Shown in pieces: positions 62,861 to 63,137 of a stretch of 63,137 bases of DNA. Numbering within the stretch: the stretch's first letter is position 1; each line of letters starts with the position of its first letter. Under the pieces are notes generated by a model. It worked only from the letters and a program-made list of their open reading frames with translations. It did no database searches and was not told the DNA's origin. A program made the translations under genes and the position numbers. Origin of the DNA: Promethearchaeota archaeon. Lineage in GTDB: Archaea; Asgardarchaeota; Lokiarchaeia; Sigyniarchaeales; SOKP01. The stretch is taken from contig JAGXNO010000019.1 of assembly GCA_019894975.1 (NCBI GenBank), positions 1 to 63,137 on the forward strand. Reading direction: 5' to 3'.

Positions 62861-63137
62861 ATGACAAATAATTTAGCTATTATCGGTCTCTCCTGGGGAG
62901 GAAATATTGGGAATACACCCATATTACCCTAAACGAAGGGAAAGGTAAATTTGTTGATTATTTTGCTCAAAAAGCGGATATTGTCGTAAGATTTAATGGT
63001 GGAAATAATGCAGGACACACAATTGTTGCTGACGGAATTAAATATAAATTTAAGTTAATGCCTAGTGGAGCCCCTTTAGAAAAGGAATGTGTTATAGCGA
63101 ATGGATGTGTTGTCGATCCAAAGGTATTGCTTGAAGA
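62861..63137 (+). CDS. purA: Adenylosuccinate synthetase, 5' part, two exons (62861-62900, 62933->63137)
   Basis: Spliced: [45 protein letters not shown]...MPSG...IANGCVVDP; runs off window end. Confidence 0.93.
62901..62932 (+). other. 32-nt BHB-type intron in purA mRNA
   Basis: GAAATATTGGGAATACACCCATATTACCCTAA inserted within the GAC codon; central helix GGGG/CCCU, bulges AG|G and AA|A, intron hairpin AAUAU-GGG/CCC-AUAUU. Confidence 0.88.

Follow-up and report, generated by a model that had tools for sequence, protein, structure and literature searches.

Archaeal messenger RNAs with introns of the bulge-helix-bulge (BHB) type are few. By 2020, only two such substrates were on record (PMC7714728). 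One is the cbf5 pre-mRNA of Crenarchaeota, in the Desulfurococcales and Sulfolobales (Watanabe 2002; Yoshinari 2006; Yokobori 2009, PMC2738675). The other is the HVO_1309 mRNA of Haloferax volcanii, which carries a BHB intron in its 5' untranslated region (Schwarz et al. 2020, PMC7714728). The splicing endonuclease EndA cuts each 3-nt bulge between bases 2 and 3, which puts each cut 2 nt 3' of the helix (PMC2738675).

Less regular motifs are described for tRNA. In TACK and Asgard archaea, non-canonical tRNA introns (HBh' and BHL) are cut by an (alpha-beta)2 EndA with a CSL/L1 loop (PMC3241643, PMC5829648). A census of Asgard tRNAs is also available (bioRxiv 10.64898/2026.10.13.758758). For protein genes, our literature search found EndA-type introns in archaeal coding sequence documented only for crenarchaeal cbf5 (PMC2738675, PMC7714728). 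The same search returned no paper on EndA-type introns in Asgard protein genes.

Eukaryotes excise a small structured intron from the HAC1 and XBP1 mRNAs. There, the endonuclease IRE1 makes the cuts, an RtcB-type or tRNA ligase joins the exons, and the reading frame changes. This splicing recognizes twin stem-loops and is regulated by stress.

Here we describe an insert in the purA gene of an Asgard archaeon. Judged by its sequence and its conservation in relatives, the stretch 62901-62932 is very likely an archaeal endonuclease-type (BHB) intron in the purA pre-mRNA. The purA mRNA must very probably be cut and re-joined. The mechanism is of a known kind; the gene (purA) and the lineage (Asgard) are new.

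Anatomy of the interrupted purA gene

The window is the whole stretch of DNA analysed, 63,137 nt, and corresponds to the entire contig G000:C86. The genome (G000) is a 3.9-Mb metagenome-assembled genome of 175 contigs, 95% complete. The purA gene lies at the end of the window and presents the following parts.

62861-62900, + strand: purA exon 1, consisting of ATG, 12 codons and G (base 1 of the catalytic Asp codon)
62901-62932, + strand: predicted 32-nt BHB-type intron, with an in-frame TAA at 62930-62932
62933-63137, + strand: purA exon 2, 5' part only, consisting of AC of the Asp codon and 67 codons (EGKGKFVDY...NAGHT...), truncated by the contig end

The gene reads ...TCC TGG GGA G up to 62900. 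The 32-nt insert follows, and the frame continues with AC GAA GGG AAA GGT AAA from 62933. Unspliced, purA appears in the ORF listing as a 23-aa ORF (62861-62932) terminated by the TAA at 62930-62932. Excising exactly 62901-62932 produces WGDEGKGK. Cuts moved by one base in either direction produce Asn or Gly, not the invariant Asp. Under the EndA rule, the cuts fall at 62900|62901 and 62932|62933, the sole positions at which splicing would give back both the frame and the GAC Asp codon. The predicted spliced junction is TGGGGAG|ACGAAGGG.

These results agree with the sequence-only reading of this DNA. It had placed a 32-nt insert within the catalytic Asp codon of purA, and all its coordinates were reproduced. 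The stop that it gave for the unspliced gene is the one ending the listed 23-aa ORF. Its claim that only removal of 62901-62932 restores WGDEGKGK holds against the one-base shifts.

Exon 2 matches Pfam PF00709 at positions 10-77 (E 1.5e-25), and the match runs to 63137, where the contig ends. The assembly breaks within purA at that point. The C-terminal tail of the gene is found at the end of contig C120 (G000:C120:125624-125719), and around 300 codons between both contig ends are missing from the genome bin. A search of the G000 genome found no second purA copy. The single purA found is in two pieces at contig ends.

The insert is also present in independent data. In a metagenome of another study (run X4), a Logan contig spans 62850-63000 with zero differences. 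The runs containing this DNA are permafrost, subsurface and marine-sediment metagenomes. Within G000, the insert sequence occurs once and presents no terminal or direct repeats. A repeat or mobile element was rejected, given this single occurrence in the genome. The Rfam scan of the insert returned no family at E <= 1. A group I or II self-splicing intron and an intein were rejected likewise, considering the size (30-32 nt), the in-frame stops in all inserts and the lack of an Rfam match.

Conservation of the insert among relatives

In the genome collection, purA is present in 48 of the 54 genomes of the genus. Inserts of 30-32 nt occupy the same site in 19 of these 48 and comprise 18 distinct sequences. 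The nearest relative, G041, has a 32-nt version with 4 positions different from G000. The remaining 16 distinct sequences form a 'main type', whose interior is unrelated to that of G000 and G041. A phylum-wide search returned purA matches that are 30 nt overlong and have internal stops in genera g14, g16 and g17, which belong to the same family. Ten purA genes were fetched from them, and the insert is at the identical site in every one (10/10). In total, 28 distinct versions are known at one site, in four genera of one family. The 13 genomes taken from the order's other families lack the insert, and all read TGGGGN GAY GAR uninterrupted.

Every insert version contains an in-frame stop, and the 31- and 32-nt versions shift the frame as well. 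So, making the PurA protein requires that the insert be removed or skipped.

The intron-bearing genes are scattered in the PurA tree. At least six changes of state are needed, two to three of them forced by well-supported branches. Presence in four genera together with absence outside the family fits one early gain with repeated precise losses. Most likely, the intron was gained once at or near the base of the family and was then lost precisely several times. Lateral spread between species is possible.

Six genomes of the genus gave no purA. Four of them (G003, G005, G051 and G065) were re-searched with the Pfam model and the PurA of G041, with the same result. Of these, G005 consists of one contig, and the marker-based completeness of G003 is 97%. 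In these four, either purA could be truly absent or the genomes could be incomplete. The gene may be dispensable in the genus members without it. Given these six genomes, purA cannot be called indispensable across the genus.

The interrupted genes conserve their coding sequence. Exon 2 has its complete 419 codons in every interrupted gene in which it is assembled, and its length equals that of the intron-less genes. In G000, exon 2 is truncated at the contig end, and the intactness of its purA rests on the nearest relative, G041. Exon 1 presents ATG and the same 13 conserved residues as in the intron-less relatives, with synonymous differences among them (for example, Ser is TCC, TCG or AGT). 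In pairwise comparisons, dN/dS comes to 0.09 within the intron-bearing set and to 0.08 within the intron-less set, and is likewise 0.08 across the two sets; the median dS is about 1.4. By these ratios, the interrupted purA genes are under strong purifying selection.

The insert and its flanks in G000 can be folded into these elements.

62895-62898, + strand: 5' strand of the central helix H (exon GGGG), fixed by the Trp and Gly codons and invariant in 28/28 versions
62927-62930, + strand: 3' strand of the central helix H (intron CCCU), which is CCCU in 22/28 versions
62899-62901, + strand: 5' bulge AG|G, with the predicted 5' cut after 62900
62931-62933, + strand: 3' bulge AA|A, with the predicted 3' cut after 62932
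62903-62925, + strand: intron hairpin h', pairing 62903-62907 with 62921-62925 and 62909-62911 with 62918-62920; loop at 62912-62917 and U62908 bulged
62887-62941, + strand: imperfect exon-exon helix h, pairing UCUCU (62887-62891) with AGGGA (62937-62941), plus C62893 with G62935

The position of helix H was defined as exon bases -6 to -3 with intron bases L-5 to L-2, the junctions being set by the protein. So defined, it is paired 4/4 in 26 of the 28 versions, although the hairpin sequences are unrelated between lineages. The 3' strands other than CCCU are CCCC, CUCU and CUUU, which pair fully, and ACCU, which pairs at 3/4. The hairpin h' is present in all 28 versions. It begins directly after the 5' bulge in 26 of them, and its first pair is mismatched in G000 and G041. 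Its stem differs by lineage: AAUAU/AUAUU plus GGG/CCC in G000, UUAG/CUAA plus GC/GC in the main type, and GGUUG/CAACC in G229.

The 16 main-type sequences permit a closer view. Pairing is kept in 97% of cells for helix H and in 88% for the hairpin h', in which 4 pairs differ on both sides. Over the structure as a whole, 87% of cells pair, compared with 37-50% when the partners are slid. For the structure, 6 pairs are changed on both sides, and the covariation score was reached by none of 500 shuffles. RNAalifold recovers H and h' unaided. The fold of the G000 sequence (MFE -18.8 kcal/mol) has a z value of -0.56 against shuffles, which is not above chance. This value does not discriminate, so it is conservation, and not energy, that supports the structure.

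The third base of the Gly codon, which is also the first base of the 5' bulge, is A in 28/28 intron-bearing genes. Among 43 intron-less genes, it is C in 12, T in 16, G in 6 and A in 9. This fixation appears to be a further sign of constraint at the RNA level, despite the saturated synonymous sites.

The exon-exon helix is less uniform. It is absent in 13/28 versions, which come from genomes with the AGU Ser codon. It is strong (7-8 bp) in 13 other relatives, in a register that leaves just a 2-nt 3' bulge. This strong form shows a UA to CG covariation between Leu and Glu synonymous sites. In G000, the pairs closing both bulges are mismatched (A62902/A62926 and U62894/C62934). The strict hBHBh' form, in which h and h' close both bulges, is not what these genes present. 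With h missing in around half of the relatives, the motif is of the relaxed HBh'/BHL class as defined in PMC5829648. Its conserved core is helix, bulge and hairpin, with the predicted 3' cut 2 nt past the helix.

The pairings proposed from the letters alone (GGGG 62895-62898 with CCCU 62927-62930, the bulges AG|G and AA|A, and the intron hairpin) were obtained again. The label of relaxed BHB given to them stands for the imperfect h and the mismatched closing pairs. It is here refined to HBh'/BHL, given the relatives in which h is missing. Two of the checks suggested at that time, on the DNA itself and on purA of relatives, came out in favor of the intron. A contig of an independent metagenome spans 62850-63000 unchanged, and the alignment places the intron at the same site in four genera, with compensatory changes in its hairpin.

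The case suggests a reason why such introns sit in conserved motifs: protein constraint holds the exon half of the helix (TGG GGA) fixed. The intron, for its part, would freeze a synonymous site.

Splicing machinery and rival explanations

The G000 genome encodes two diverged EndA paralogues of around 200 aa, at C22:27129-27737 and C55:16593-17195. They are 30% identical, and both have N- and C-terminal EndA domains. The first is closest to the catalytic alpha subunit of the Aeropyrum pernix heterotetramer (PDB 3P1Z, E 1e-34). It presents NKPR aligned to EKPR, that is, to K44 and R46 of the Crenarchaea-specific loop, and conserves the catalytic His. In the second paralogue, this place is not occupied by a His. 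K44 of the loop is required for the broad specificity of EndA (PMC3241643), and Asgard archaea are reported to have an (alpha-beta)2 EndA with the Crenarchaea-specific loop (PMC5829648). By its residues, the EndA of G000 is of the broad-specificity (alpha-beta)2 type, predicted to be able to cut relaxed motifs outside tRNA. An RtcB gene is also present, on contig C90.

In the 3.9 Mb, aragorn detects just 16 tRNAs, 6 with introns, a number suggesting that many of the tRNA genes of G000 are too interrupted for recognition. The count is in line with reports of some Asgard archaea whose tRNA genes are heavily interrupted (bioRxiv 10.64898/2026.10.13.758758).

The proposed splicing would proceed as follows. 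In the purA pre-mRNA, the exon GGGG would pair with the intron CCCU in a 4-bp helix. On one side, this helix would be flanked by the AG|G bulge and the intron hairpin. On the other side, it would be flanked by AA|A and then by the weak exon-exon helix. The two-subunit EndA would cut both strands, each time 2 nt 3' of the 4-bp helix. RtcB would then join the exons, and the G+AC junction would restore the catalytic Asp of GDEGKGK with the 13-codon exon 1 in frame. We infer the cutting, the ligation and EndA and RtcB as their agents; the gene anatomy, the conservation and covariation, the selection and the enzyme genes are observed. Two metatranscriptome runs, X19 and X20 (with related DNA present), and one doubtful run, X15, gave zero cover over purA (62800-63137). 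The sequence-only reading had made this gene dependent on tRNA-type splicing. The comparative evidence fits that proposal, and we infer the dependence itself.

Other explanations of the insert were weighed. The insertion could have killed purA and left a decaying pseudogene, with AMP supplied by salvage or by a partner organism. The six genus members in which purA was not found (four of them even with the G041 PurA as query) would agree with this, as would the middle of the gene missing from the G000 assembly. However, a complete 419-codon exon 2, where assembled, accompanies an intact exon 1 across four genera. The dN/dS of 0.09 is like that of intron-less genes, at a dS of about 1.4, and the structure is conserved with compensatory changes. 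Decay is therefore highly unlikely. The intact second purA beside a decaying copy, named at the outset as an alternative, finds no support either, as no second copy was found in G000 and the interrupted genes keep that low ratio. Conversely, the gene could be functional without any RNA processing if ribosomes hopped over the 32 nt, as in phage T4 gene 60. The gap is short, holds a stop and a hairpin, and comes after a GGA codon. Nevertheless, the Asp codon is split into G and AC, 32 nt apart, and a hopping ribosome finds no intact GAY. It has no in-frame GGA landing codon before GAA GGG, and landing at the next GGG or GGA omits the Asp and Glu codons or alters the frame. The conserved helix between the exon and the intron 3' end, exactly 2 nt from both junctions, suits EndA and not a pair of take-off and landing sites. 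Translational bypass is very improbable as an account of these genes.

If the insert is removed from the RNA, the enzymes could still be others than EndA and RtcB, either another endonuclease and ligase or self-cleavage. The motif is relaxed and not canonical, which leaves this idea a slim chance. But the spacing precisely matches the EndA ruler, which cuts each strand 2 nt 3' of a 4-bp helix, and the genome encodes an EndA of the broad-specificity type and RtcB. Moreover, 30-32 nt is far below the size of group I or II introns, and Rfam gave no match. The insert could also belong to the DNA level, as an assembly error, a strain variant or a small mobile insertion excised from DNA. That the contig terminates within purA is in line with an error. 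An identical insert on a contig of a separate study, an insert site shared by dozens of independently assembled genomes, and a sequence that is unique in the genome and lacks terminal or direct repeats make this extremely unlikely. The EndA-type intron in the pre-mRNA is the reading that we keep.

Other interrupted genes and comparison with described introns

Two further genes of G000 present inserts with a stop. The rnhB gene (RNase HII; G000:C94 ~15040-15085, minus strand, locus L201) is interrupted at DEAG^RGPVIGPLV by 30 nt that include TAA. Its design is that of purA: exon UGGG, bulge AG|A, an 8-bp AU-rich hairpin, then CCUA and AA|A. A gene of the CobA/CobO/BtuR adenosyltransferase family (G000:C115:5850-6389, minus strand, locus L204) has its P-loop split at ..YFGRG^KGKTTAA by a TAA-containing insert of 30 nt, again of the purA design. 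This CobO-like gene matches its Pfam model at positions 3-172 with a single internal TAA.

Side observations were made in other genes. The strict BHB screen gave a 31-nt insert in a UXS-like SDR gene (G000:C164 ~24137, + strand), at ..ETYFGHV^NPVGPRSCYDESKR. It also gave a 30-nt insert in a further gene (G000:C120 ~110805, - strand), at ..KEKYWD^WGSGDILDEK. Both resemble the purA insert. In the window, a small Zn-ribbon gene adjoins cdc6 (52490-52550, minus strand). It reads ATG GCC CGT TGC CCA GA, followed by around 29 nt with an in-frame TGA, and then TGC GGT GGG. Removal of this insert would give MARCPECGGF; its boundaries can be placed only to within 2-3 nt, and in the best register just 3/4 positions of the central helix pair. 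Finally, purA of G202 (genus g16; L200:370-420) has a second insert of around 31 nt at NAGH^T, besides the one in the Asp codon.

We made five versions of a genome-wide screen that combines the motif with ORF joining. None gave an excess over shifted-cut controls. The signal was swamped by gene boundaries and by long ORF heads without a start codon. From the strict screen, the rnhB, CobO-like and UXS-like genes were recovered by eye. The cbf5 gene of G000 (TruB_N; G000:C90:16156-16497) is uninterrupted, with an open frame of 344 aa.

A family-wide regime, with many protein genes carrying EndA-type introns of 29-32 nt, typically near the 5' end and in the most conserved motif, has slightly better than an even chance of being true. 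The examples behind this reading are purA, rnhB, the CobO-like ATPase, UXS, the Zn-ribbon gene and the second purA site in the relative. If it is true, routine proteome expression would depend on tRNA-splicing enzymes. Likewise, mRNA splicing by endonuclease and ligase would operate at scale in the closest prokaryotic relatives of eukaryotes.

As purA is a core metabolic gene, the conserved intron in its catalytic codon brings a new class of genes into the phenomenon. It also reaches the archaeal group nearest to eukaryotes, the Asgard archaea. In practice, gene callers will list purA as truncated or missing in these genomes, and metabolic reconstructions will be distorted.

Among the described systems, the cbf5 intron shares most of these features. 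Like the purA insert, it splits the codon of a catalytic Asp between letters 1 and 2 (PMC2738675). Its BHB is mostly unconventional or relaxed, with predicted cuts between bulge bases 2 and 3, as in purA (PMC2738675). Its distribution is patchy, with gains and precise losses (PMC2738675), and that of the purA insert is likewise patchy and fits such a history. The hosts of the cbf5 intron have a hetero-oligomeric EndA of broad specificity, as is predicted for G000. In contrast, purA encodes a metabolic enzyme, and its host is an Asgard archaeon of the class Promethearchaeia/Lokiarchaeia, from metagenomes of mesophilic or cold sediment and permafrost. The splicing of purA is predicted from sequence, whereas the cbf5 case has cDNA.

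The IRE1 and RtcB splicing of eukaryotes resembles the purA model in that a protein endonuclease and a ligase act on a small structured mRNA intron. The endonuclease proposed for purA is different, and there is no sign of regulation at purA. The HVO_1309 intron is, like the predicted purA intron, an EndA substrate within an mRNA. However, it lies in an untranslated region and interrupts no codon, and its euryarchaeal host has a homodimeric EndA and a strict motif. The non-canonical tRNA introns of TACK and Asgard archaea are similar to the purA insert in their relaxed motif class, in their size range and in the enzymes presumed to process them.
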